From positions 22,586 through 86,585 of the IMG/VR virus record IMGVR_UViG_2681813421_000002: a DNA stretch of 64,000 nt; one strand, given 5' to 3'. The first letter of the stretch is position 1, and each line of letters opens with the position of its first letter. A model generated the notes under the pieces. That model was given only the letters and a program-made list of their open reading frames with translations. It had not been told where the DNA came from and did not search any database. This document shows, piece after piece, positions 2,469 through 59,298 of the stretch. The translations under genes and the position numbers were made by a program. The DNA comes from a virus (Duplodnaviria; Heunggongvirae; Uroviricota; Caudoviricetes).

Positions 2469-3236
2469 TCACCCCATAGATATCGAGGTTTCGGTAATAA
2501 TACGTTTTGCGTCCAACTCCCATGCTGTGATCACGTCTGTAATCACACTTATCGGCGCTTGTGTGGCATAAATACGCTCTTCTCCAATTGGTGCTGAAAC
2601 ATCCGTAAAGCCGACTTCTTTGGCATCCTGTATCGAGCAAATCAGCGGGACCGGGACACGAACAAGGTGAGTGGTTGCTTCAAATTGTGTACCTGTCATC
2701 AGGCGAAGCCGTGCGCCCAGCGAATTACACATCAGACTCATGGTCGCTTTATCAGTTGCCATTAACGTAACGTCATACGTCAGAATGGCCTGGGTGTATT
2801 CCAGTTCTGCTAAAGGCATTCCGGTATCTGGTTCGCAAAAACTGGCTACTTTTTTGCGGTCAATCTGCTGATCATCGTTGATATAATTGATATCCATAGT
2901 GCGTGAGATATTGACCAGGGGGAGAGCATCCCGGTTAATGTTCTGGTTTTCAGGTTTTCTCCCTTGCCCGGCATTTGCGCGACGAACTGCTTTAAGAAAC
3001 TCGATCGCATTGTCGAAACGGGCCATATAGACACGCTCTGCTGGTGGACGATTCAGGAATGACGCAAAGCGTTTTTCTTCCGGCGCGGGGGCCACCAGTA
3101 AGATATCAGAAAAAATGTTGCTGATTAGCGTCGCAAACGCGTTATCCACGTTTTCAAAGCCCGTGGTCTGGAATTTTCCTGTGCGTAAGGTTTGCCATTC
3201 ACCGGTTCGCGCCAGGAGGGTTTTATTTGAAGTCAT
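2469..3236 (-). CDS. Hypothetical phage protein
   Basis: 255 aa ORF, tightly packed with flanking genes. Confidence 0.45.
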   Translation of the reverse strand: MTSNKTLLARTGEWQTLRTGKFQTTGFENVDNAFATLISNIFSDILLVAPAPEEKRFASFLNRPPAERVYMARFDNAIEFLKAVRRANAGQGRKPENQNINRDALPLVNISRTMDINYINDDQQIDRKKVASFCEPDTGMPLAELEYTQAILTYDVTLMATDKATMSLMCNSLGARLRLMTGTQFEATTHLVRVPVPLICSIQDAKEVGFTDVSAPIGEERIYATQAPISVITDVITAWELDAKRIITETSISMG

Positions 3237-4036
3237 TCGATCACTCCGTTTTGAGTCGTATCAAAATTTCTGGCAGGTATGCAGTAGTAAAGCGAACCAA
3301 CATGCTGTGTGCCGTAGCTAAAAATACGGTGCACGTACCACCAGCGGCGGGCTACGCCGTTTACCATCTCTTCATTCCATTCAAGAATTGAGCCGACGGG
3401 GACGTTATTTGCTGCAATACGCAGAATCAGAACATCATCGGTTAAGCCATCCTGCTCACCGTCTGCGTCAATCGCATGGAAAGAGTCACGCCCGTCAGGG
3501 TTATCCAGCACATAAACGATTTCAGGTTCCTGGTAAGTCAGTTCGCGTTGGTTGTTATCCAGTTCAGTGAATGACTCTTCTCCTGTTTCGTCGCTGACTA
3601 CCCCATATGTGCCAACATCTGGTCGATATAAGAGAGCCTGAAACGCGTCTGGGCTGGATTCAATAATCAGCATCCAGTCTGCGCGGATTTGGTCGTTAAA
3701 GGCTTTATGCCCGTTATAGCGTGCTTTTAACTGTGGAGTCGGTTCTCTCCCAGCCAGGGAAGATGGAAGTATGGCTATATCTGATTCGCCAGCATCCGAA
3801 GTAAGGCCACCGTTGCTATCAGCAAAATTATCATGGCTATCAGCTTTGGCGGCGGGTTGCTCTTCCAGAATGCTGAATGAATCCGAACCGGTATTGCCAT
3901 GTTCCGGCGCGCCTCCTGCATTCGCTTCAATCGGTGCTGGCGTTTCTCTCTGCGTGCTGTCATGTTCTGACTCCTTACTTGCCAGGTTTGCATCGTCAGC
4001 AAACCATTCGTCAAAACGGCCCATAAGCATCCTCAA
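3233..4036 (-). CDS. Hypothetical phage protein with acidic, low-complexity N-terminal half
   Basis: 267 aa ORF; N-terminal D/E/S/G-rich region. Confidence 0.45.
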   Translation of the reverse strand: MRMLMGRFDEWFADDANLASKESEHDSTQRETPAPIEANAGGAPEHGNTGSDSFSILEEQPAAKADSHDNFADSNGGLTSDAGESDIAILPSSLAGREPTPQLKARYNGHKAFNDQIRADWMLIIESSPDAFQALLYRPDVGTYGVVSDETGEESFTELDNNQRELTYQEPEIVYVLDNPDGRDSFHAIDADGEQDGLTDDVLILRIAANNVPVGSILEWNEEMVNGVARRWWYVHRIFSYGTQHVGSLYYCIPARNFDTTQNGVIE

Positions 4037-4186
4037 AGGTCGATCTGTCAGGTATCGAAAGGAAGATTTTCGGGAGATTGTGATTTTGGATGAAGGAGGG
4101 GGAATTCATAAAATGCACTTGCGCACAGTGCAACAGTGCGCTATAGTTATGGCATTCGGTAATCATCACGGAGGATCAAATGACTA

Positions 4187-4489
4187 ATGACCAAAAAAAT
4201 TAACATAAAGGATTTCAGGGATGCGTGGCTTGATGATTTTTTTGAATTTTCAACACCACATAGAAAGATACCTCCTGATATTCATATGACATTGTCACGG
4301 AAGTTGGACATTATCAATGCCGCAACTACCTGTAAGGATTTAAGATCACCACCAGGTAATCGGTATGAGGAACTGTCAGGGAAGCTAAATGGCTATTCAT
4401 CAGTAAGGGTGAATAAGCAATATAGGTTAATTTTTAAGTGGGTTAACGGAAAGGCCGAGGACTTGTATCTCGACCCTCACAAATACTAA
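4187..4489 (+). CDS. higB: HigB toxin (plasmid-maintenance killer family, Vibrio/Rts1 type)
   Basis: 100 aa; motifs RKL.I..AA....DLR.PPGNR.E.L.G.L.G..S.RVNKQYRLIF.WV.G...YLDPHKY match HigB-type RelE-fold toxins. Confidence 0.8.
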   Translation: MTKKINIKDFRDAWLDDFFEFSTPHRKIPPDIHMTLSRKLDIINAATTCKDLRSPPGNRYEELSGKLNGYSSVRVNKQYRLIFKWVNGKAEDLYLDPHKY

Positions 4490-4559
4490 AACAGATACCC
4501 GGTTACGGACCGGGTTCTGACCAGAGTCCACTTAATACGCACGCTAGTAAGGGCAAAAA

Positions 4560-4898
4560 ATGAAACAGGCAACCAGAAAACCGACGACCGTAGGTGATAT
4601 CCTGCTGTACGAATACCTGGAGCCGTTAGAGCTGAAGATCAACGAGTTAGCAGAAATACTTCATGTTCATCGTAACACCGTAAGTGCTCTTGTTAATAAT
4701 AATCGTAAGCTAACGATGGATATGGCATATCGCCTGGCAAAAGCATTCGATACTTCTGTAGATTTTTGGATTAATCTCCAGACCGCAGTAGACCTGTGGG
4801 AAGTCGAAAATGACATGCGCGTTCAGGAAGAGTTAAGTCGTATCAATACTGCTGAAAAATTTATTTCTCAGCGGAACCTGAATAAAAAAGCAGCCTGA
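4560..4898 (+). CDS. higA: HigA antitoxin (XRE-type HTH)
   Basis: 112 aa; VGDILLYEYLEPLEL...HVHRNTVSALVNN HTH region, toxin-first gene order characteristic of higBA. Confidence 0.8.
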   Translation: MKQATRKPTTVGDILLYEYLEPLELKINELAEILHVHRNTVSALVNNNRKLTMDMAYRLAKAFDTSVDFWINLQTAVDLWEVENDMRVQEELSRINTAEKFISQRNLNKKAA

Positions 4899-4918
4899 TA
4901 TAGTAAAACACATACAAA

Positions 4919-4948
4919 AAGCCCACTTAACAAGTGGGCTTTCCTTTG
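4919..4948 (+). terminator. Rho-independent terminator after higA
   Basis: Stem AAGCCCACTT/AAGTGGGCTT with 3-nt loop followed by a T-rich tract. Confidence 0.5.
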
Positions 4949-4954
4949 GAATTA

Positions 4955-5314
4955 ATGAACATTAAAACTATCCGTACAGAACAAGATTATGAGGCCGCAC
5001 TGCGTGCGGTAGAACCGATGTTCGATAACGAACCGGAAACGAACACCCCGGAAGGTAATTTCTTGGAGGTTATGTGTCTTCTCATTGAGGAGTACGAGAA
5101 AAAACATTACCCAATTGAGCCGCCATCACCTATTGAAGCCATTAAATCCCGTATGGAATAGCAAGGGTTGACCGTGAAGGATCTGGAACCGGCGATTGGT
5201 AAGTCAAATCGTGTTTACGAAGTGCTAAATGGGACACGAAATTTAACGTTACCTATGATTCGTCGTTTACATTCCCAGTTTGGCATTCCTCTTGAAAGCC
5301 TAGTTGGTGTTTAA
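4955..5314 (+). pseudogene. HigA-family (COG5499-like) antitoxin gene interrupted by in-frame TAG at 5159-5161
   Basis: Upstream part MNIKTIRTEQDYEAALRAVEPMFD...KHYPIEPPSPIEAIKSRME, then TAG, then in the same frame QGLTVKDLEPAIGKSNRVYEVLNGTRNLTLPMIRRLHSQFGIPLESLVGV; the two halves together resemble E. coli K-12 HigA (YgjM)-type antitoxins. Confidence 0.55.
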
Positions 5315-5374
5315 GTTTGGCAGTCTGGAGGGCCGATTTTACATAAAATCAAGGTTTAAATATTTGGTGATTAT

Positions 5375-6115
5375 ATGAGCACTGATTCATCAATAGAAAA
5401 GGAAAATGAAAAATCATCCGCCCAAAATCTGATAGAAGATGCTGTAAAAGATAAGTTGTTTAATAAGGTTTTTGCCTACATTTTTATTTCATTTTTAATT
5501 TCTAACTGGCGAGATATATTTATATTGTTGAAGTCAAAAGATGATGTTATGTATACATTATCTATGGTGTTTGTTGGGGAAAAGATTCCATTATTTGGGA
5601 ATGTTTTTGTACCCTCATTCGTAGCTCATTTTGTCTTGCCTTTTATTTATGGTGTTGTGGCTTCAATATTAGCCCCAATGTTAACTTTACTAATTTCTAT
5701 GGTGACTGGCACAATATACGCTAAATTGAGAGAGATAGATAAAATTGAAGACAAAAAAGAACAAGTAAGAAAAATTAACAGAGACATTAATGATCTTACT
5801 AAGAAACGGAAAGACGTTGAAGAGCGTCTTGAAAAAGAAAAAGAAGAACATGAATCATTAAAAAGAAAGGTAGAAGAAGTTAGGGAACAGATTGAATGTG
5901 TGGATAGCGATATCCGTCATGTTATTAAATTATATAGAGAGAAAGGTGAGAGCTTAAATTCGTTGGATGATTTTTATGAATTTTTTACTGCCGTGAAAAA
6001 CTCATCTTTTCGTTCGGGTGATACAAATGACAGGGAGACACTTGAGGAGATTCTCTCAAAGCTTTCTGATTCACTTGAAAAAATTAAATGCGATGCTAAT
6101 AAAAAGGTGGGATAA
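5375..6115 (+). CDS. Membrane protein with long C-terminal charged coiled-coil (unknown function; AT-rich gene)
   Basis: 246 aa; hydrophobic segments (FAYIFISFLISNW; FVPSFVAHFVLPFIYGVVASILAPMLTLLISMVTGTIY) followed by K/E-rich heptad-like region; visibly AT-rich versus flanks. Confidence 0.6.
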   Translation: MSTDSSIEKENEKSSAQNLIEDAVKDKLFNKVFAYIFISFLISNWRDIFILLKSKDDVMYTLSMVFVGEKIPLFGNVFVPSFVAHFVLPFIYGVVASILAPMLTLLISMVTGTIYAKLREIDKIEDKKEQVRKINRDINDLTKKRKDVEERLEKEKEEHESLKRKVEEVREQIECVDSDIRHVIKLYREKGESLNSLDDFYEFFTAVKNSSFRSGDTNDRETLEEILSKLSDSLEKIKCDANKKVG

Positions 6116-6126
6116 ACCCACCTTTG

Positions 6127-7317
6127 TTAATTTTTTATGTACTCCATGAACATTTTTTCAGCTTGTGCTGGTGGTGTTCCAGCCATGACAAGCGCATCAA
6201 TGAACGCCTGCTTCTTCAGTGCGAACTGATCGGCAAGGCGTTGCTGAAGTTCCTTATTTTTCTGTTTCTCACGTTGCAAGGCCGCTTCTTTTGCAGCCGC
6301 CCGTTTTTTCTGTGCGTCTGACAACTTTCTGGCCCTGGTCAATTGGTCACGTAGCTTGTCGATATTGCCGTTGTCCTTTGCCAGTTTTGTACTTAAAGCT
6401 GCCTGGCGCTTCTGATAGAGCCTCCATTCGCGTTTGGCGGCTTCAACGTTTGTTTTACTGCTTCGATTGCGATTAAACTCCTTCTCGTCTTCTTTTGAGA
6501 AGTGTTTGGTTGTACGGCGGCGATCGTCACCAAATGCAATTTGCGTTGCAGCCTTTTGTAGCGCACGAGCAATACTCATTTGCCAACTGGCGGACTGTAA
6601 CCGCGTCATTGAGTGGATCACGTGTTTACAGGCGACGCCTTGCAGCTTCGGGTTGCGAACTTTTGGATAGGCGTATTCTTTTGGCGGGGCCAGGGCAAAG
6701 TTACCCGCAGTAGCGATGTAACGATACCAGTATTGATGACGACCACAGTCACAATCGAAAGACACTCGCCCGGCGCACAGTGATTTAGTGATTTTGAGAG
6801 CTGATTTATCGTCTTCTGCGATGTCATCGACCATCTGATCCCATTCTTCAAAGCGTATCCGGACGATATGGTGCTGGTGGACGGATATATCCGATGCTTC
6901 TACGCGGATATTAATCACGTTGTGGCGAAGAGATACGGGGGTAGCTCTTTTGATACCAGATCCGTCATCCACGGCGTTATTTGCACGCTTAATATCGATT
7001 GCCTGGCTGGATGCCACCAGCTGGGCGTATGTGATGCCAGCCGTCTTGCTGTCATATTTTTCGCGTGTTTTACTCCGTAGCTTTTCGAAACCTTTCAGGT
7101 CGTCTCGCGTGAAGAACGTGCCGCCTTTTTTCTTCCCTAACTTGAGAATATCTTCGGCGGATTTGTTCCTCAGTCCACCTGGCGTCAGCGTCCGGTGAGC
7201 TTGTCGGCGCTTACGGGTTTGTTCTTTCCTGATAATCTCGAATATACGCGTGAAGTCCTTAGAGGACAGACCGTCAGTGATATAGCGCCCGTCCTGGTTT
7301 TTCAGGAAATCAGGCAT
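6127..7317 (-). CDS. Hypothetical protein with SWIM-like zinc-finger motif and C-terminal basic coiled-coil
   Basis: 396 aa; CDCGRHQYWY...CKHVIHSM (CxC-x-C-x-H pattern), K/R/A/Q-rich C-terminus. Confidence 0.5.
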   Translation of the reverse strand: MPDFLKNQDGRYITDGLSSKDFTRIFEIIRKEQTRKRRQAHRTLTPGGLRNKSAEDILKLGKKKGGTFFTRDDLKGFEKLRSKTREKYDSKTAGITYAQLVASSQAIDIKRANNAVDDGSGIKRATPVSLRHNVINIRVEASDISVHQHHIVRIRFEEWDQMVDDIAEDDKSALKITKSLCAGRVSFDCDCGRHQYWYRYIATAGNFALAPPKEYAYPKVRNPKLQGVACKHVIHSMTRLQSASWQMSIARALQKAATQIAFGDDRRRTTKHFSKEDEKEFNRNRSSKTNVEAAKREWRLYQKRQAALSTKLAKDNGNIDKLRDQLTRARKLSDAQKKRAAAKEAALQREKQKNKELQQRLADQFALKKQAFIDALVMAGTPPAQAEKMFMEYIKN

Positions 7318-7639
7318 TTTCTATCTCCGGTTCCGCGCTTGCGTAATCACGGATCTTGTTCCTCAGCCATGCCACATCAGGAAGAGTTAACGTGGTCCCT
7401 GCGGGCATTTCTTCCATTTCTGACTCATGGCCCACCAGCACCCGGAATACCCAGCGCAAATCTGCATTGCCATACGCCCTGTAGGCTGCAAGGTCTGAAC
7501 GATATACTTCATCAATCTTTATCGTGTACTGGAAATTATCAGAGTGATACTCCGATACCCGCTTAATCATTTCCTGGTGAAACAGCGCACGAAAAATATC
7601 GTCTTCAATGTACCTATCGTCGAGTCTGCTATAGCCCAT
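7310..7639 (-). CDS. Hypothetical protein
   Basis: 109 aa ORF overlapping start of downstream gene by 8 bp. Confidence 0.4.
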   Translation of the reverse strand: MGYSRLDDRYIEDDIFRALFHQEMIKRVSEYHSDNFQYTIKIDEVYRSDLAAYRAYGNADLRWVFRVLVGHESEMEEMPAGTTLTLPDVAWLRNKIRDYASAEPEIENA

Positions 7640-7822
7640 AACAAAGCCTCTCAGTCATAACCTGGTGGAAACTGTATGCAGGGTGTGAAATGCGAGAAAC
7701 AGACAGGCCACCAGTTCAGGGGGATGTGGTTCATAAATCCCCTCACTGGTGACAAGTGACTTTCATTAATCTTTATGCGGGGGCCAGCTTCATTTGCTGG
7801 CATTAGATTAAAAATTAAACGG

Positions 7823-7957
7823 AGTGAATGACATGGATGTTATCTTCGAATTATTAATGCTAATTGATCTGTTTATGAACGCTTCATTGACCACGCAAAT
7901 ACTGGCGTCAATATTTTTGTTACTCTTCTACCTGGTATTGAGGGAGTTAACAAAGCT
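7823..7957 (+). CDS. Small hydrophobic peptide (44 aa), possible membrane-active small protein
   Basis: ATG preceded by GGAG at about 8 nt; MDVIFELLMLIDLFMNASLTTQILASIFLLLFYLVLRELTKLLM; not in the supplied ORF track (below its size cut-off). Confidence 0.25.
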
Positions 7958-7967
7958 ACTAATGTGA

Positions 7968-8621
7968 TCAAAGTATCACGGTATCTTCATCAACTTCTTT
8001 CCCAGCCAGTGACTTTGGCTGGGAGGTGCCTGCTTTAACTTTTTCATGCCCAATAATGGACAGGAACGAAGCGAGTATGCCTGTTTTTTGCTCTTTCTCG
8101 ACTGTACCGATCATCTGCTCTACGTAATCCGCACTGGCAACGTTGTGGTATACGGTCGCGTAGCAACACAGGACCATCAGAATATGTTCCGGCCTGATAT
8201 CCTGCCAGTTCACCCGGTAGACTTCTTCTCCGTTACCGTTGTATTCGGTGTCAACGATGGAGTCAGGGATTTCGAAAGCACCTTTGTTATTTTGCGGCAG
8301 GGATAATAGCTTCTGGAGTTTTAACTCTCTGTATCTTTCCATCCCGACGATGATTGCTGCTCTGCCATCGGCATGACGGGTCTTGAGAGTCACCTGGCTT
8401 GCTCCGGTGCCAGCGGAGATCGTTGGCGTTATTTCGTCTACCAGTACCTTAAATTTGCTTTTCCGCAGGGCTGCTATAGCTGGAGGAATTTTTTGCTTTT
8501 GCTCCAATGCTGACGCGGGAAGGGGTTTTACTTCGTTAATAATGAGAGCACCGTCTTTCAGTATTGCAGTGAGCATTTGAGGCTTGCTGGTGGTCAGGCT
8601 GAATATTGCGATCTTTTCCAT
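7968..8621 (-). CDS. Hypothetical protein
   Basis: ATG at 8619-8621 preceded by GGAGG; the longer track ORF (to 8663) would start on a GTG inside an upstream terminator hairpin. Confidence 0.5.
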   Translation of the reverse strand: MEKIAIFSLTTSKPQMLTAILKDGALIINEVKPLPASALEQKQKIPPAIAALRKSKFKVLVDEITPTISAGTGASQVTLKTRHADGRAAIIVGMERYRELKLQKLLSLPQNNKGAFEIPDSIVDTEYNGNGEEVYRVNWQDIRPEHILMVLCCYATVYHNVASADYVEQMIGTVEKEQKTGILASFLSIIGHEKVKAGTSQPKSLAGKEVDEDTVIL

Positions 8622-8648
8622 TGTCCTTCCTCCACGGATGACGGATAC

Positions 8649-8672
8649 AAAAAAAGGCCGCACATGGCGGCC
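8649..8672 (-). terminator. Rho-independent terminator (minus strand)
   Basis: GGCCGC-ACAT-GCGGCC hairpin followed on minus strand by a 7-T run. Confidence 0.45.
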
Positions 8673-8889
8673 TGCTTTGGCGTTATGACTCCCTACCGCG
8701 CTTCGGCTGAAAGTTAATCGTCAAAAGAACCTTCAACGGGAGCCGTTAGCGCGATGGATTATGTGCAGTTTGTGATTTCCAAAATAGTGTCAACCACTTT
8801 TTGTGGATTTTATTTTTTGACCGAAATTTGGCCTAAATCATGTTGATGTAGTTGATTGTTTTTGTAACATAAAACTTCATTTTGTTTAC

Positions 8890-9513
8890 ATGAAGGACGG
8901 TGTAGTGAAGTTAAGGGTTTTAGGGACCGCGCTCGCGGCTATGTTGGGATGCGTATCTGTTAATACAGCCAATGCAACTGCGTTACCTGCACAATTCAGG
9001 GCAGGGCAGCAGGTTATGAATAACGCTGGTGGGGATCATTCACAAGCGGCAATTATGGACTTTTGCAAGAGAGAGGGCATTCCATTACGGCCTGTTGGAA
9101 CTCAGTTTATTGGTAAAACTGACTTTTGCGTTTTTGCATATACAGCATATCTGACGGACAAAGCTATAACAAAAACAGGTTATTCAACCAAAGATACTCT
9201 TTCCAGATTAAGTCAGGGATGGCAGCAATTCGAAGTGTATCGCCAGCAAGGATTAGGTGAGTTATTACAACCACTTTTTATGCTTGCGTTGGTGCCCGAG
9301 GGGCAGCAATTTTTGGTTAAAAAGGGAATGCTTCGCCAAAGTGATATTGCCGGGTTCGATAGCATGATGGCTTATGAGCGCAAACTAACCGAGCAGCGAA
9401 ATAAAAAACCATCTGCTTCATGTGTGCAAAGTAAAACAGCAGAATACAGTGCAGTAGCCGGGCCTTTAGCCAAACAAATGGCAGAGCAATGGTGTAAAAA
9501 ATACGGGCAATAA
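8890..9513 (+). CDS. Secreted protein with N-terminal signal peptide
   Basis: 207 aa; LRVLGTALAAMLGCVSVNTANA signal-like N-terminus. Confidence 0.5.
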   Translation: MKDGVVKLRVLGTALAAMLGCVSVNTANATALPAQFRAGQQVMNNAGGDHSQAAIMDFCKREGIPLRPVGTQFIGKTDFCVFAYTAYLTDKAITKTGYSTKDTLSRLSQGWQQFEVYRQQGLGELLQPLFMLALVPEGQQFLVKKGMLRQSDIAGFDSMMAYERKLTEQRNKKPSASCVQSKTAEYSAVAGPLAKQMAEQWCKKYGQ

Positions 9514-21258: not shown

Positions 21259-22661
21259 TCACTATTACCAAAGAACGCCTGCTGACAATCCAGCAGTGGC
21301 GCGAAACATACGGACCTGGTAGCAACGTTGTACTGCCAGCAGAAGAAGCGGAAGAACTGGCACGAATTGCTCTGGCATCGCTGGAAGCAAAACCAGTTGC
21401 TTATATTTTCAAACATCCGGCCGGGAAATTATTCTGGGCTTTAACGGATGAAAGCAATAAAGAGCAAGCGGACGTTATTCCTGTTTATGCTGCCGCGCCT
21501 GCGTCGGTTGTGCCGGATAATGCATCAGAGCCTCTTGCTTATGCTTACAAAGAGCTTACGCCTGAGATTATGCGCAACCATTTAGCTGTATTCGAGCGAT
21601 ATGGAATAGCCCCAAACGATAGCTCTACCACAATTCAGGCACTGCGAATCGCGCTGGATGGTATAGAGCGGAGCGACGCCATGCTTCAGTCCGGAAACTT
21701 TCGGGAAAACAAGAATTCGTCAACCAATAATTTTCGGGAAATCGCGGAAACGTCAACCAACTATCCGGTAATTCCTAGTGAGCTGTTGTCCGCAATCCTG
21801 AAGGTTGCCAAGATTCGTGCCGATTTCGATGATTTTGACGGTGACAGGCGAGGTATCGATGATTGTCTGGATGAGGCTGAGCAAGAGCTTATCGTTACCA
21901 TTAACAAATATGCCAGTCAGTTGGCAGCAGAACCGATAGCGACTAATGACGTTCGAGAGCAAACAGCCGTTCCGCCAGTTCCGGTAATGCAGGCTGATGT
22001 CGCGCAGGCAATTGAAAAACTCAAACGGAAATTAGTGGAATGCAATCGCTATAACTACTGTGCAGATGCAGTTAAAGGCGTAGAGGATGCCTGCCGTGCT
22101 GTTAGCTATAGCCAAGCCGACAATCAGCCAGCATCTGGCAACCAGGCTGCCGAATCCAATCGCGGTAATGAGTGGACCGGCAATCCTGATATTGATAACG
22201 CCATCATCATGCTCGATCGCATAGATACGCTGGAAAGTTGCGATGATGACCGTATTGAGGCTGTTAAGGCTGTTTTGCGTAGACTGGCTGGCAACTATCC
22301 GGATATTCCGGATAGTTCGGTGCCAGCGCCAGGAAAGGGCGTCACCGGTGAACGTATCCGCATTAAGCCGCATGTTTATCGCGAACTGGTTAACCGTCTC
22401 CACGATACAGCGATCAAGTGTGCTGGCACCCAGCAATTACGAGAAAGAATTAGCCGTGTTTTGGGCGACGTTATTACACCAGATCATCATAAACAAGCCG
22501 AGAAAAGTGACCTGGAAAGGTGTCACCTTGAGGCGGCATTAAACATTAAGCCGGGGCATACGCTTGGCATTATTGATGCACTATTGGTTCATAAGATGGC
22601 CAGGGCTTTATTGCCGCTGGTGGCTGAAAAGCATGAGGTGGACCATGCCAACGAAAGCTGA
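21255..22661 (+). CDS. Hypothetical protein with internal tandem repeat and C-terminal motif shared with 13113-13724
   Basis: 468 aa; repeated FRENK/FREIAE segment; YRELVNRLHD...GTQQLRER. Confidence 0.5.
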   Translation: MITITKERLLTIQQWRETYGPGSNVVLPAEEAEELARIALASLEAKPVAYIFKHPAGKLFWALTDESNKEQADVIPVYAAAPASVVPDNASEPLAYAYKELTPEIMRNHLAVFERYGIAPNDSSTTIQALRIALDGIERSDAMLQSGNFRENKNSSTNNFREIAETSTNYPVIPSELLSAILKVAKIRADFDDFDGDRRGIDDCLDEAEQELIVTINKYASQLAAEPIATNDVREQTAVPPVPVMQADVAQAIEKLKRKLVECNRYNYCADAVKGVEDACRAVSYSQADNQPASGNQAAESNRGNEWTGNPDIDNAIIMLDRIDTLESCDDDRIEAVKAVLRRLAGNYPDIPDSSVPAPGKGVTGERIRIKPHVYRELVNRLHDTAIKCAGTQQLRERISRVLGDVITPDHHKQAEKSDLERCHLEAALNIKPGHTLGIIDALLVHKMARALLPLVAEKHEVDHANES

Positions 22662-55973: not shown

Positions 55974-56267
55974 TCAATTCACATCAATGTCTTGATATGA
56001 TTCGCCAGTATCGTCTTCGTCGTCAGGATCTCCTTCCACCTCTGGCCACTCAACCTCCCAGCCAACAGTTTCCAGGCTCCGCAGAACAAACACCCCATCG
56101 GCATGAATGGTATTCACGATCCCCATTGCGGAATTTGTGTTGATAAAGCGTAAATCTTGCGCAATATTTTCTTCCGAAATATCGCCTTCAAATATACGCA
56201 ATGTGCCGTCATCAGAGCATTCAACAATCCCTCTAATCCCAGCGGGACTCACAATGCTATACTTCAT
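55974..56267 (-). CDS. Small acidic protein at distal end of Dar operon
   Basis: 97 aa, D/E-rich C-terminus. Confidence 0.35.
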   Translation of the reverse strand: MKYSIVSPAGIRGIVECSDDGTLRIFEGDISEENIAQDLRFINTNSAMGIVNTIHADGVFVLRSLETVGWEVEWPEVEGDPDDEDDTGESYQDIDVN

Positions 56268-59200
56268 TTTGCAACTCCTTCATACATCCCAAGAAAAATT
56301 CCAGCACGCCGTCATTGTTTAATACAGAGTTAGTCGCCTGCTCCGGATCGGCATACATCTGCAAGGCCATAGAAAAAATCTCAGTCGCCCTGCAATTGCT
56401 TAATGCAGGTGGCTTTGATATAAATCTGCCGCTGACAGAACTTACCGTATTTTCCATATAAATTTTAGACATATATCCATGACTTAGGTCGGTTCGCACC
56501 AAATACTCAGCACTGCCACGGCTACCAATATTATGATAAGAAACTTTACCGTTAGTTTTTGATTTAATGAAGGCTTTGGCCCTCTCCAATAGATGGGGAT
56601 TTGAATGTTCTATATGGTGACCTATTTCATGCCATAATACACGCTCGTGATCACTATTAGCATCAATTGTTATATTCCCATTTCGACTTGCAAAAGCACG
56701 AACATTGTTCTTGTGGTTAATATTTTTTAATGTAGATAAAGTCCCTCCTGAAATAATATAGGCTTTTTCAATCGTCTCGCGAATACTGTATGCTTTACGG
56801 GAGAAAGTTTCATTATCGTGACCACTTAACTGCTCTGCTTCATCAGAAATAGCAATCCCACGACTCCATTCCTTAGACTGGTCATGTGACACATTTGACG
56901 ATTCAAGAATCATGTCAAATGCGGCTCTGACTTTTTTATGTACTACATTTTCAAGCGCATTAGGATAGGCTTTTTGTCCACGTGTTAATGAAGCTATTTC
57001 ATATAGTTCTGCTTGCAAGTCTTCCGGTATGTCCAGATTAAAAACAAGCATTTTTTTCAGATCATATCCAATCCCATGATCATTCTGGTGCAAAACCTCA
57101 GCAAGGTAGTCAGTGAGTTTTTCCTTATTTGACCTAACTTTATTGATTTGTTCTATAGTAAAGTCAACACGCTCCTTGATTCCGTAATATGAGGAATGCT
57201 CTGCTAATTCCACTATCTCCTTAAGCCTGACAAGTGTCTCAATATACGCATCAGCGATCTCCTCTGCCGTTAGTTCAGAGCTAACTCCGACACTGGCTGT
57301 TATTTTCCTACCAGCCGCCATAATATCGTCGATATTATGCAAGCTCTTTTTGAATAACTTCAAAGTATTTTGGATTATGCACACCATCTCTTCTGCGCTT
57401 CCAGCTTTATTCATTTCCTTTCTAAATCTTAAAGCTGTTTTCTCTGCAATAGACGCTGGAGATTTTAAATAGTTACCTAACCAAACAAGACAACCATTGC
57501 GCAATTCATCAATACTAAAGTCATCAGGAATATGTTTTGCTGCATTATGTAAAACACGTATAAATTGTTCAGCGGGCACGCCTTCTTCTGATATGTTGCA
57601 AAACGTTTCAATATCACAATCAATATTTCTTTCATCTGCGAGCGAAGGAGCTTCATCTCCTTTTTCAATCGCGTCACGCAGTGCGTTAGCATAAAAATTG
57701 CTGCGTTGATAAGACAATAACATCGTTGTTAACACAGCGTCGCTGTATCCATAACGTTTAGCCCACTCCTTAATCTCATTAACGGTGACATTGCGAATAT
57801 AAAAACCAAGTTCCAAAAATACATTGCGCTTTATTTTTTTTGCGGACTCCTTAATTTTTTCTGACACCTTCACGATTCGGATCAAGTCCTCCACGCTGGT
57901 CGCATCAGCAATTAGCTTTGAAATGTATGGTTCGACATCTCCTGAAACCGATTCAAACATGGCGAAATTAAGCCCTTTACCTTCGCCATACTCAGCCTCA
58001 ATTTCATCAGAAACGGCAGATAAAATGCTACGCAGATCGACATCTCCGCCGCCGAACATATCGCCTAACGCTTGTTGCTGGTGAATAAGTTCATCGTTAA
58101 TTTTTTGCGCCAGTTTCTTGAAAGCTGCCCCCATTCGCTTAGCGCTTCGGTTGTTGGCAACAATAAACAGAGCAAGCGCTTCTGCTTCCGGAGTGCTATC
58201 TCCAAACAATCCACGCTGTGCGATCACCTCTTCTACTGCCTGACCGTTATCTTTTGCTTCACGAACAAGGTTAATTGCTTCCTGTAGCGCGGCAATAGCC
58301 TGTTTATCCAGACCATTCAATTGCTCTATACCGTCTACCAGTCCGGTTACCGTGTCATGGTGAACATCACCTGAAAGCGACTGCATTTGCGCAAAATCGC
58401 TGGCTGCCGTATTTAATGCGGTAAGAATGTTACGCATTTCCGGATCTGGCTCTTCCGCCACCAGCCGAACAAGCCTTTCATCCTTGTACGCTTTGGCAAA
58501 AATTGCATTCTGGATGCGGTCGATAAGTTGTTTCGTTGGACGCCCATCGGCAGTAAGCAAACCTGCCGTCGCCGTATCACCTATTTCGCGCAAAAACGCA
58601 CGAATAAACGCATCATTGGACCGCGCCAGTAGATTTCCATCATCTGAAGGATTAAATAGCGCCATGACGCTCTCAGTGAGAAATTGCGCATCCGCATACG
58701 CTTTTTCACTTGCAGCCATCTCTTGCAGATCGCTGATGTTTGAATCACGGGCAAATTGTGCGCGGTCTACATCTGTGAGTCTTTCTCGCACCAATACGGG
58801 CATAGACATTTGTGAAATGTCGTCAGGATTCAGACCAAACTCTTTTGCATGATCGATCAGGTACTGGCGATATTCATCCGCCTGCCCTTGCTCATAGGCA
58901 CGCCAGATACCCATGCTCCTTCCGTTGCCGGATTCAACAACGTTGTCCGGACCAACTATCGGCGCTCCGTGGCTGCTCATGCCGGAATCCGTTAATTGTG
59001 CCGGGCGTAAATTGGAGGCAATACGGTTAACCTGGAGTTTGCTTGATAGCCGTGTACGGTCACGTGGCTGGAGTTCTTCCGGGAAGGCCGGATTAATCGT
59101 ACCGTCAAGGTTGTTCGAAATGATCAGACTGCTGGCATCAACGACCTTAAAAGCCGTCTTTACCTCTGCCCCTTTACTGGTGACTACGTAACTACTGCGC

Positions 59201-59298
59201 CCCTGGCGTGTTTCTCGCCTCTCTAATGAAGAAACCAGCGCAATAACACTGTTAATGTCTGCTGCTTCGGATAGCGCGGAAGTAACTGACTTGTTCAA
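56257..59298 (-). CDS. ddrB: DdrB-like large virion-associated antirestriction component with C-terminal HExxH motif
   Basis: 1013 aa; position and size match P1 ddrB; WHEIGHHIEH near C-terminus. Confidence 0.5.
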   Translation of the reverse strand: MNKSVTSALSEAADINSVIALVSSLERRETRQGRSSYVVTSKGAEVKTAFKVVDASSLIISNNLDGTINPAFPEELQPRDRTRLSSKLQVNRIASNLRPAQLTDSGMSSHGAPIVGPDNVVESGNGRSMGIWRAYEQGQADEYRQYLIDHAKEFGLNPDDISQMSMPVLVRERLTDVDRAQFARDSNISDLQEMAASEKAYADAQFLTESVMALFNPSDDGNLLARSNDAFIRAFLREIGDTATAGLLTADGRPTKQLIDRIQNAIFAKAYKDERLVRLVAEEPDPEMRNILTALNTAASDFAQMQSLSGDVHHDTVTGLVDGIEQLNGLDKQAIAALQEAINLVREAKDNGQAVEEVIAQRGLFGDSTPEAEALALFIVANNRSAKRMGAAFKKLAQKINDELIHQQQALGDMFGGGDVDLRSILSAVSDEIEAEYGEGKGLNFAMFESVSGDVEPYISKLIADATSVEDLIRIVKVSEKIKESAKKIKRNVFLELGFYIRNVTVNEIKEWAKRYGYSDAVLTTMLLSYQRSNFYANALRDAIEKGDEAPSLADERNIDCDIETFCNISEEGVPAEQFIRVLHNAAKHIPDDFSIDELRNGCLVWLGNYLKSPASIAEKTALRFRKEMNKAGSAEEMVCIIQNTLKLFKKSLHNIDDIMAAGRKITASVGVSSELTAEEIADAYIETLVRLKEIVELAEHSSYYGIKERVDFTIEQINKVRSNKEKLTDYLAEVLHQNDHGIGYDLKKMLVFNLDIPEDLQAELYEIASLTRGQKAYPNALENVVHKKVRAAFDMILESSNVSHDQSKEWSRGIAISDEAEQLSGHDNETFSRKAYSIRETIEKAYIISGGTLSTLKNINHKNNVRAFASRNGNITIDANSDHERVLWHEIGHHIEHSNPHLLERAKAFIKSKTNGKVSYHNIGSRGSAEYLVRTDLSHGYMSKIYMENTVSSVSGRFISKPPALSNCRATEIFSMALQMYADPEQATNSVLNNDGVLEFFLGCMKELQNEV

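Follow-up and report, generated by a model that had tools for sequence, protein, structure and literature searches.

The closest described counterparts of the protein treated here are SieA of phage P22 and SieB of P22 and lambda, which act in the lysogen, the orf30 product of phage P2, the ZorA protein of the Zorya system, and the third component of toxin-antitoxin-chaperone (TAC) operons. The protein, named TMCC after its transmembrane (TM) and coiled-coil parts, is encoded by one open reading frame (ORF) in a stretch of 64,000 nucleotides of viral DNA (Caudoviricetes; positions 22,586 to 86,585 of the IMG/VR record IMGVR_UViG_2681813421_000002), which as a whole is called the window below. 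Its gene is the last of four plus strand genes in an accessory island located between homologues of the phage P1 tail genes 7 and 25. The alleles of the gene are old and have been exchanged by recombination on nearly identical backbones, and TMCC is a plausible candidate for a new membrane-based anti-phage family.

SieA (P22) and SieB (P22, lambda), prophage-encoded inner-membrane proteins of superinfection exclusion or abortive infection, resemble TMCC in the role proposed for it and as small membrane proteins encoded against the flow of the neighbouring phage genes. In the P22 record both sieA and sieB have annotated promoters of their own, and SieA adjoins the genes of virion ejection proteins. 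The Sie proteins are, however, shorter than TMCC (164–192 aa), with no detectable homology and no Pfam matches, and they are not known to have a long heptad coiled coil. In hhalign comparisons the probability was 0.2% for lambda SieB, 0.7% for P22 SieB and 4.2% for P22 SieA, the last over 38 hydrophobic columns, and 0.5% and 0.1% for lambda RexB and P2 Orf30, respectively. Also no partner gene was conserved beside TMCC in the contexts that were read, and none of the neighbours was annotated as RexA.

In phage P2, orf30 occupies the slot between genes S and V on the opposite strand, is non-essential and has several hydrophobic stretches in its translation (locus L052, 9439–10224). A homologue of TMCC, P0022, has the same S–V slot and orientation, but the two sequences are unrelated. 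P2 is the classic example of a phage whose tail clusters carry morons on the opposite strand by which other phages are excluded, and Fun/Z, Tin and Old are lysogenic-conversion exclusion genes of P2. The S–V junction behaves as a moron slot for genes of the TMCC/orf30 type.

ZorA, like other receptors with coiled-coil stalks that transmit signals, resembles TMCC in having a membrane part that continues into a long cytoplasmic helical stalk, a likeness that concerns functional analogy only; the length of the ZorA tail reportedly matters. The two differ in that ZorA has a MotA-like fold and TMCC two TM segments, and in that TMCC has no conserved partner genes and no family-wide heptad pattern. 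PADLOC-DB, which we take to include Zorya models, gave no significant match to TMCC. The mycobacterial TAC systems consist of three genes, HigB, HigA and a chaperone. TMCC loci resemble them where HigB, HigA and a third gene follow each other on one strand, an order that recurs in three backbones. The third TAC gene encodes a SecB-like chaperone, whereas TMCC is a membrane coiled-coil protein, and the TA (toxin-antitoxin) module upstream of it varies and is often absent.

The sole library match of the window protein was PHROG 8191, a family of unknown function (E = 9.7e-75, residues 1–244 on profile positions 1–242 of 242), which was matched also by the product of orf73 of Escherichia phage D6 (YP_009914750.1; E = 6e-115). 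Pfam, NCBIfam and PADLOC scans of these two proteins yielded coiled-coil noise only. With PADLOC-DB v2.0.0 the best scores were ≤19 bits, nearly all on the coiled coil alone (LmuB, JetC, PbeC), and D6 orf73 had none. No domain was common to the 28 family members scanned with Pfam, neither they nor the window protein gave a SieB or SecB-like match, and a profile search of the PDB sequences again gave coiled-coil noise only (best E = 0.018). The first-pass annotation, a reading of the letters of the window made earlier, had assigned the protein to no family, and this assessment still holds. The gene itself is not new, since D6 and RefSeq plasmids carry it as an annotated hypothetical gene. Apparently undescribed are the family, the cassette-like polymorphism of its alleles, its repeated occurrence in accessory or defence-type slots and its position just after TA modules; a paper on D6-like prophages mentions, of the island content, higA–higB alone (PMC6799933).

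Alleles of the TMCC gene on a D6-like backbone

The window is a D6-like phage-plasmid, and its positions 3000–9000 were 96.9% identical to D6, a P1-related plasmid prophage. A megablast search with the TMCC ORF itself matched nothing. In D6, orf73 (242 aa) has the same slot, strand and architecture as the TMCC gene, and its product was 40% identical to the window allele between flanks that were ~97–100% identical. About 30 D6-like loci, taken from collections of plasmids, IMG/VR and assemblies, were compared. Their tail genes were mostly 96–100% identical to those of the window, with 67–93% in Enterobacter and a few other lineages, and the TMCC alleles present in the same slot were 24–83% identical to the window protein. 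When the DNA identity was calculated in bins of 100 bp, it fell from 93–100% to 42–75% exactly over positions 5300–6100 and was restored at the convergent stop codons.

The TMCC alleles of the window and D6 had a saturated synonymous divergence (dS >2); for genes 7 and 25 the value was 0.035–0.06. Over the alleles compared, the TMCC dS was saturated, as against 0.035–0.15 in the flanks. Because saturation is found in TMCC while the flanking genes are nearly identical, old TMCC alleles are being swapped by recombination and are not diverging in place. In-situ hypermutation as the source of the diversity was rejected in view of the saturated dS together with the sharp breakpoints, which indicate that whole alleles are exchanged. 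The breakpoints vary by lineage. In one widespread lineage the left breakpoint lies within the upstream helix-turn-helix (HTH) gene, the 3' half of which is lost, and the alleles of locus L003 and the window have the 5' end of the TMCC gene in common and differ over the remainder. Among 5,426 complete E. coli genomes, the backbone region was present in 35 and the allele class of the window in only 3.

Regional ratios of nonsynonymous to synonymous substitution rates (dN/dS) were calculated from the closest pair of alleles, those of the window and pF374-2 (83% amino acid identity). The ratio was 0.11 in the membrane domain, 0.26 in the C-terminal head and 0.77 in the stalk, where dN was about five times faster and which is the fastest-evolving part of the gene. 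TMCC is a real gene, with the ORF retained in most D6-like loci and the low ratio in its TM domain, and it is clearly functional, its membrane part being under strong purifying selection. No positive selection was demonstrated, the ratio being at most 0.77.

TMCC belongs to a very small family. Among 5.8 billion proteins, a word-indexed search revealed 12 relatives, and when 1.84 billion cluster representatives were searched exhaustively with a hidden Markov model (HMM), 69 matched at E ≤ 1e-3 and 23 at E ≤ 1e-10. The family members are mostly 205–275 aa long (fragments excluded), and their source names, where given, were all enterobacterial, including Escherichia, Enterobacter, Lelliottia and Citrobacter together with Klebsiella and Salmonella plasmids. 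A search for related loci with a narrower alignment found one locus in the genome collection and 21 in IMG/VR. Among 46 aligned sequences the conserved residues were Asn44 and Pro89 (both 46/46), Pro101 (45), Ser54 (44), Gly93 (42) and Tyr187 (38), all of which the window protein carries. The mean pairwise identity over the family was 0.39 and 0.30 in the two membrane segments, the first of these being the best-conserved region, and 0.15 and 0.17 in the stalk and the head.

The spacing between Pro101 and Tyr187 was exactly 88 residues in 22 of the 46 members, which came from four deep clades. The other lengths were mostly 88 plus multiples of 7 or 11 (81, 95, 99, 109, 110, 116 and 121), and the spacing in the window's own allele class was 86. 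The spacing of 88 residues has been kept despite a stalk identity of only ~15%, and these values hint that the length, and perhaps the phase, of the stalk matters.

Homologues, toxin-antitoxin neighbours and possible function

Distant homologues of TMCC, with 17–25% identity, were found in accessory or defence-type places. In P2-like prophages, P0022 (~25% identical) is a lone gene that separates gpV from gpS and has the opposite orientation (L009, 5001–5651). P0085 adjoins a phage-type integrase gene and lies between a Ser/Thr kinase gene and a gene for a 1589-aa AAA_11/AAA_12 helicase, with an AlpA-like gene nearby in one of its loci. P0080 adjoins an Ogr/Delta gene and has AAA_15/21 and DUF4435 (PARIS-like) genes ~2.5 kb away, and P0036 has an AAA_13 ATPase gene ~1.3 kb off and integrase and portal remnants nearby.

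The distribution largely refutes the explanation that TMCC is a structural, assembly or lysis protein of the phage, for example a spanin-like or tail-associated coiled coil, and we regard such a role as very improbable. It would suit the location of the gene between baseplate and tail genes and the combination of a membrane anchor and a coiled coil as in i-spanins, and there was a weak match to the Rz-like spanin family phrog_739 (E = 0.008), limited, however, to the coiled coil. The gene is on the strand opposite to the late operon, P1 and P7 have the same tail genes without it, and it is found on non-phage plasmids, in an integrase-flanked island and at a bare chromosomal site. Also the divergence of its alleles is out of keeping with the tail proteins beside them, neither an o-spanin partner nor a lysis cassette lies in the vicinity, and the counts of lysine and arginine (K+R) favour a cytoplasmic stalk.

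In many D6-like plasmids the island consists of a PF09907 HigB gene, a gene for a HigA2-like HTH protein of 119–139 aa, and TMCC (L002, L003, L007, L008, L033–38 and L044). The same trio was present in a different slot of another P1-like element (L017), between the tail-tube gene and pmgC, with a TMCC that was ~20% identical. In the slot of L017, another P1-like phage-plasmid lineage has a TMCC homologue after a TacA/GNAT-toxin module (L048/L049, 2781–4714). Outside any phage, the HigB–HTH–TMCC trio was found in the Klebsiella pneumoniae plasmid NZ_CP132738 (L005, 4201–6795), where TMCC is cut by IS903B. Altogether 55 Klebsiella plasmids matched TMCC, and ten IncFIB-type records of a spread sample matched residues 3–134 only. 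The module is mobile but dead in the Klebsiella IncFIB lineage.

Three TA families were thus found upstream of TMCC (PF09907 HigB, PF05015 HigB and TacAT), and in at least six contexts TMCC was alone, without a TA module. The HTH gene was intact wherever PF09907 HigB was present upstream. Where this toxin was absent, the HTH gene was degraded in three ways: by an in-frame TAG in the window, by 3' truncation to 66 aa in nine D6-like loci, and in a further locus by a split. The gene seems to be that of an antitoxin which lost its partner when PF05015 HigB/HigA replaced the PF09907 toxin, and which has been decaying since. That TMCC would be a toxin neutralised by the adjacent HTH protein was rejected, as TMCC is intact in lineages, the window among them, whose HTH gene is a pseudogene. 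Since TMCC stays intact while the HTH gene decays, it is independent of the HTH protein and is kept by selection.

TMCC could also be the third component of the TA operon, a membrane partner that senses an envelope or infection signal or localises the complex, and modulates the TA pair instead of being an autonomous effector. In several independent backbones a type II TA module directly precedes it on its own strand, without an intervening terminator, and the HigB–HigA–chaperone operons described above provide a precedent. The three upstream TA families are, however, unrelated, which suggests a general link (one promoter for both, stabilisation, or the use of one insertion hotspot) and not a specific pairing of proteins. 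Taken with the contexts in which TMCC stands alone, its integrity beside an HTH gene degraded in three ways in the window lineage, and its lack of a SecB-like or other chaperone domain, this makes the role of a TA component unlikely in our view. Given the variation of the TA family upstream, the modules resemble carriers from which TMCC obtains a promoter and addiction, and not specific partners.

The reading that we prefer, tentatively and with somewhat less than even confidence, is that TMCC is a membrane protein of superinfection exclusion or abortive infection (Abi) expressed in the lysogen, a proposal based on context, anatomy and population genetics. The gene would be a lysogenic-conversion moron transcribed against the surrounding late tail genes, probably by readthrough from the TA operon just upstream. 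No terminator was found between TMCC and the upstream TA genes in the window island, and the sole candidate promoter proper to TMCC was a weak consensus match within the upstream HTH pseudogene. The product would form a two-helix hairpin in the inner membrane, its N and C termini both on the cytoplasmic side, and would oligomerise through a coiled coil of ~11 nm that continues from the second membrane helix and bears a small helical head at its far end. The lysogen might be protected in one of two ways, either by the blocking of an early membrane-associated infection step (superinfection exclusion) or by the opening of the membrane once infection is sensed (Abi). The conserved hairpin (Asn44, Pro89, Gly93, Pro101) would be the working part and the fast-changing stalk and head would set the specificity, which could explain why very different alleles are present on near-identical backbones. 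The topology, the oligomerisation, the expression in the lysogen and the anti-phage function are what we infer only.

The first-pass annotation had pointed out that some exclusion and Abi proteins have such an architecture. A role of this kind stays hypothetical, and the context favours it: TMCC is an opposite-strand moron in the tail clusters of two phage types, it is found in an integrase-flanked island, and its alleles are hypervariable. In P4 satellite hotspots, six of eight tested loci with genes of unknown function gave protection against phages, and the paper on the P2/P4 hotspots describes neither the TMCC family nor any TM-coiled-coil system (PMC13586616). A more far-reaching version, which we hold to be rather doubtful, is that TMCC founds a new single-gene anti-phage family with a two-helix effector, a stalk of fixed length and an exchanged cytoplasmic sensor head. 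The allele cassettes would then be exclusion specificities shuffled among D6-like phage-plasmids, P2-like prophages, islands and plasmids, often using the promoter and addiction of an upstream TA module.

Several observations weigh against a role in exclusion or Abi. The characterised exclusion and defence proteins had no sequence or fold similarity to TMCC in the searches made here. Most of TMCC is predicted to be cytoplasmic, which is unusual for blockers of DNA entry that act on the periplasmic side. A significant heptad signal in a single register (p<0.01) was detected in only 8 of the 46 members, so that a rigid coiled-coil stalk is secure for the allele class of the window and uncertain family-wide. 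The dN/dS ratio never exceeded 1, and the rapid change of the coiled coil may reflect mere low constraint. The widespread copy on Klebsiella plasmids is broken, as is the gene of at least one D6-like locus, and a copy in Enterobacter stands by itself as an islet flanked by asr and an M32 carboxypeptidase gene. Guilt by association in prophage hotspots also fits cargo without a defence function.

It is possible, though less likely than not, that TMCC is such cargo, either lysogenic-conversion or selfish. Its membrane function might then be, for example, immunity to a membrane-acting bacteriocin or tailocin, fitness under envelope stress or in colonisation, or an influence on division or transport in the host, and low constraint together with frequent recombination would account for the diversity. 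Accessory slots of prophages also hold morons that are not defensive, and another homologue of TMCC was found ~2 kb from a colicin-like bacteriocin and immunity pair. The islet among housekeeping genes, the dN/dS below 1 throughout and the lack of matches to defence models are compatible with the same explanation. Deep polymorphism with cassette-precise breakpoints on near-identical backbones is, however, more typical of conflict-driven or frequency-dependent selection. The recurrence of TMCC beside kinase and helicase genes and near PARIS-like and AAA_13 genes likewise speaks for defence, and the immunity proteins of pore-forming colicins have 3–4 TM helices and are not known to have a long cytoplasmic coiled coil.

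P1/D6-type phage-plasmids are common in clinical and food-chain Enterobacteriaceae, and their accessory slots are far less mapped than the P2/P4 hotspots. TMCC marks a slot in which the backbone is nearly clonal and the cargo deeply polymorphic, the population signature that is expected of a conflict locus. If it were an exclusion or Abi factor, it would represent a membrane-based single-gene mechanism without a relative among the known systems and a simple model of a coiled-coil stalk coupling a sensor to a membrane effector, and TA modules would be revealed as carriers of defence cargo. Should TMCC have no part in defence, it remains an unannotated membrane protein of a widespread plasmid type, conserved and under selection.

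Architecture and composition of the gene and its island

The features of the gene, its product and the island are presented in Table 1. The invariant columns of hydrophobic segment 1 were read from alignments of 28 and 46 sequences. The loop between the segments was 20–22 aa long in most family members, 29–37 aa in most of the D6-slot clade and 32 aa in the window protein, the clade of which has an extra hydrophobic stretch of ~10 aa within the loop (residues 71–84). With two hydrophobic segments and this insert, the two or three TM helices reported in the first-pass annotation are a fair description of the protein. The K+R count, averaged over the family, was highest in the 24 aa past segment 2 (5.3) and lowest in the loop (2.5), with 3.5 for the N-terminal flank, which favours, without being decisive, an inner-membrane hairpin with both termini inside and a cytoplasmic stalk.

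Within residues 112–192, 15 of the 21 core hydrophobic residues were at the a and d positions of a single register. The period-3.5 power was 122 in the window protein and 11.7 +/- 11.3 in shuffled sequences, none of the 2000 being as high. The stalk of 74 aa includes 23 K/R and 22 D/E residues. The AlphaFold2 (AF2) model constructed from 46 sequences (mean predicted local distance difference test score, pLDDT, 75.7) had an unbroken helix over residues 81–189, with segment 2 running straight into the stalk, and pLDDT values of 89–96 across residues 121–170; an earlier model from 13 sequences was too poor for use (pLDDT 62.8). The coiled coil of ~130 aa that had been noted at first is real, but it covers ~75 aa, and the rest is a helical head of 55 aa. 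The near-invariant Tyr187 is located at the junction of the stalk and the head, and Asp199 is kept in about half of the family.

The product is identical to WP_047648361.1 of the E. coli plasmid pGF60-C, annotated as a hypothetical protein, and positions 5300–6200 of the window had 100% DNA identity to NZ_CP172188 (pGF60-C). The GC content of the gene was 0.320 and the mean of the window 0.476 (z = -4.4 among all windows of 741 bp, sd 0.035). Equally low values were found in 0.18% of the 741-bp windows, every one of them overlapping the TMCC gene, which is the global minimum of the 64 kb. Also the GC content at third codon positions (GC3) of TMCC, 0.272, was the lowest, the 39 long ORFs averaging 0.472 +/- 0.059. 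Since GC3 was the lowest of the 39 ORFs, the AT bias is compositional and goes beyond the K/E-rich amino acids; an effect of amino acid composition alone was thereby ruled out. All TMCC alleles examined were AT-rich (GC 0.29–0.38). Within the island the GC content was 0.40–0.44 in the left part and 0.30–0.33 over the TMCC gene.

In P1, genes 25 and 7 are separated by 3 bp (L055, 4718–4722) within the late operon 26-25-7-24-6-5, and no TMCC homologue was found in P1 or P7. Since the two genes adjoin in P1, and P1 and P7 are without TMCC, the region between them in the window is an inserted accessory island. The first-pass annotation had described the gene as more AT-rich than its surroundings and suggested its separate acquisition. 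Both claims are borne out: the dip in GC is significant, and the acquisition is supported by the island between genes 25 and 7 that P1 and P7 lack, by the AT-rich alleles, and by a saturated dS next to flanks with 0.035–0.06. The gene is absent from part of the P1-like genomes, and no structural role was found for it.

Table 1. Coordinates of the TMCC gene, the parts of its product, and the island and its flanks in the window.
Feature	Position	Strand	Basis or remark
P1 tail gene 7 homologue, left flank of the island	3233-4036	-	
Opposite-strand accessory island, ~2.09 kb	4037..6126	+	D6 annotation, P1 comparison
HigB-like toxin gene (PF05015), first in the island	4187..4489	+	Pfam E = 4.4e-35
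HigA antitoxin gene (HTH_3, 112 aa)	4560..4898	+	Pfam; RefSeq annotation of identical protein
HigA2-like HTH antitoxin pseudogene, in-frame TAG at 5159-5161	4956..5314	+	split ORFs
Shine-Dalgarno-like GGTGA, 4 nt 5' of the TMCC ATG	5366..5370	+	sequence reading
TMCC coding sequence, ATG start, 246 aa	5375..6115	+	ORF list
Hydrophobic segment 1, residues 32-52	5468..5530	+	hydropathy; invariant Asn44, near-invariant Ser39
Loop between segments, residues 53-84	5531..5626	+	KSKxD motif with Ser54; predicted periplasmic from K+R counts
Hydrophobic segment 2, residues 85-116	5627..5722	+	hydropathy; invariant Pro89, near-invariant Gly93 and Pro101
K/R/E/D-rich heptad coiled coil, residues 117-190	5723..5944	+	heptad test, AF2
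C-terminal helical head, residues 191-246	5945..6112	+	AF2 helices 197-209, 217-244
Intrinsic-terminator-like hairpin AAAGGTGGG-ATAAA-CCCACCTTT and T-run	6103..6125	+	terminator scan
P1 tail gene 25 homologue, right flank of the island	6127-7317	-	

The TAA stop codon of TMCC is inside the loop of the terminator-like hairpin, which is 1 nt away from the stop of the convergent tail gene 25. Judging from the A-run on its 5' side, this hairpin may be active also on the minus strand. The codon that is TAG in the HTH pseudogene of the window is CAG in D6, and RefSeq flags it as 'internal stop'. Two further terminator-like hairpins with T-tails, both on the minus strand, were found inside the island (4944–4916 and 4515–4497), and the island splits what in P1 is a single late operon.

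Directly 5' of the higB start, positions 4178–4186 read AAATGACTA, the same letters as the -22 box annotated for the late promoter LP26 of P1. As a P1-type late-promoter box this is probably a coincidence, since chance alone should yield ~0.5 such 9-bp matches over the two strands of 64 kb. Also the left part of the island (4037–4950) is a swapped cassette, with PF05015 HigB and HigA in the window and D6 and an unrelated PF09907 HigB in many sister plasmids. Its DNA identity was 11–45%, as against 93–100% in the flanks (window compared with L002/L003, 2130–2580).

Some D6-like plasmids, pGF60-C included, have a RelE/ParE–HigA pair between gene 26 and mat (L002, 5352–5923; L004, 5424–5995; L046, 4933–5504). 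At the corresponding place the window (7640–7968) and D6 have only two tiny ORFs, and the window is therefore not pGF60-C despite the identity over the TMCC gene. The lowest GC content after that of the TMCC gene was found on the minus strand at 56257–59298, in an ORF of 1013 aa, the central part of which is AT-rich (741-bp windows down to GC 0.37).

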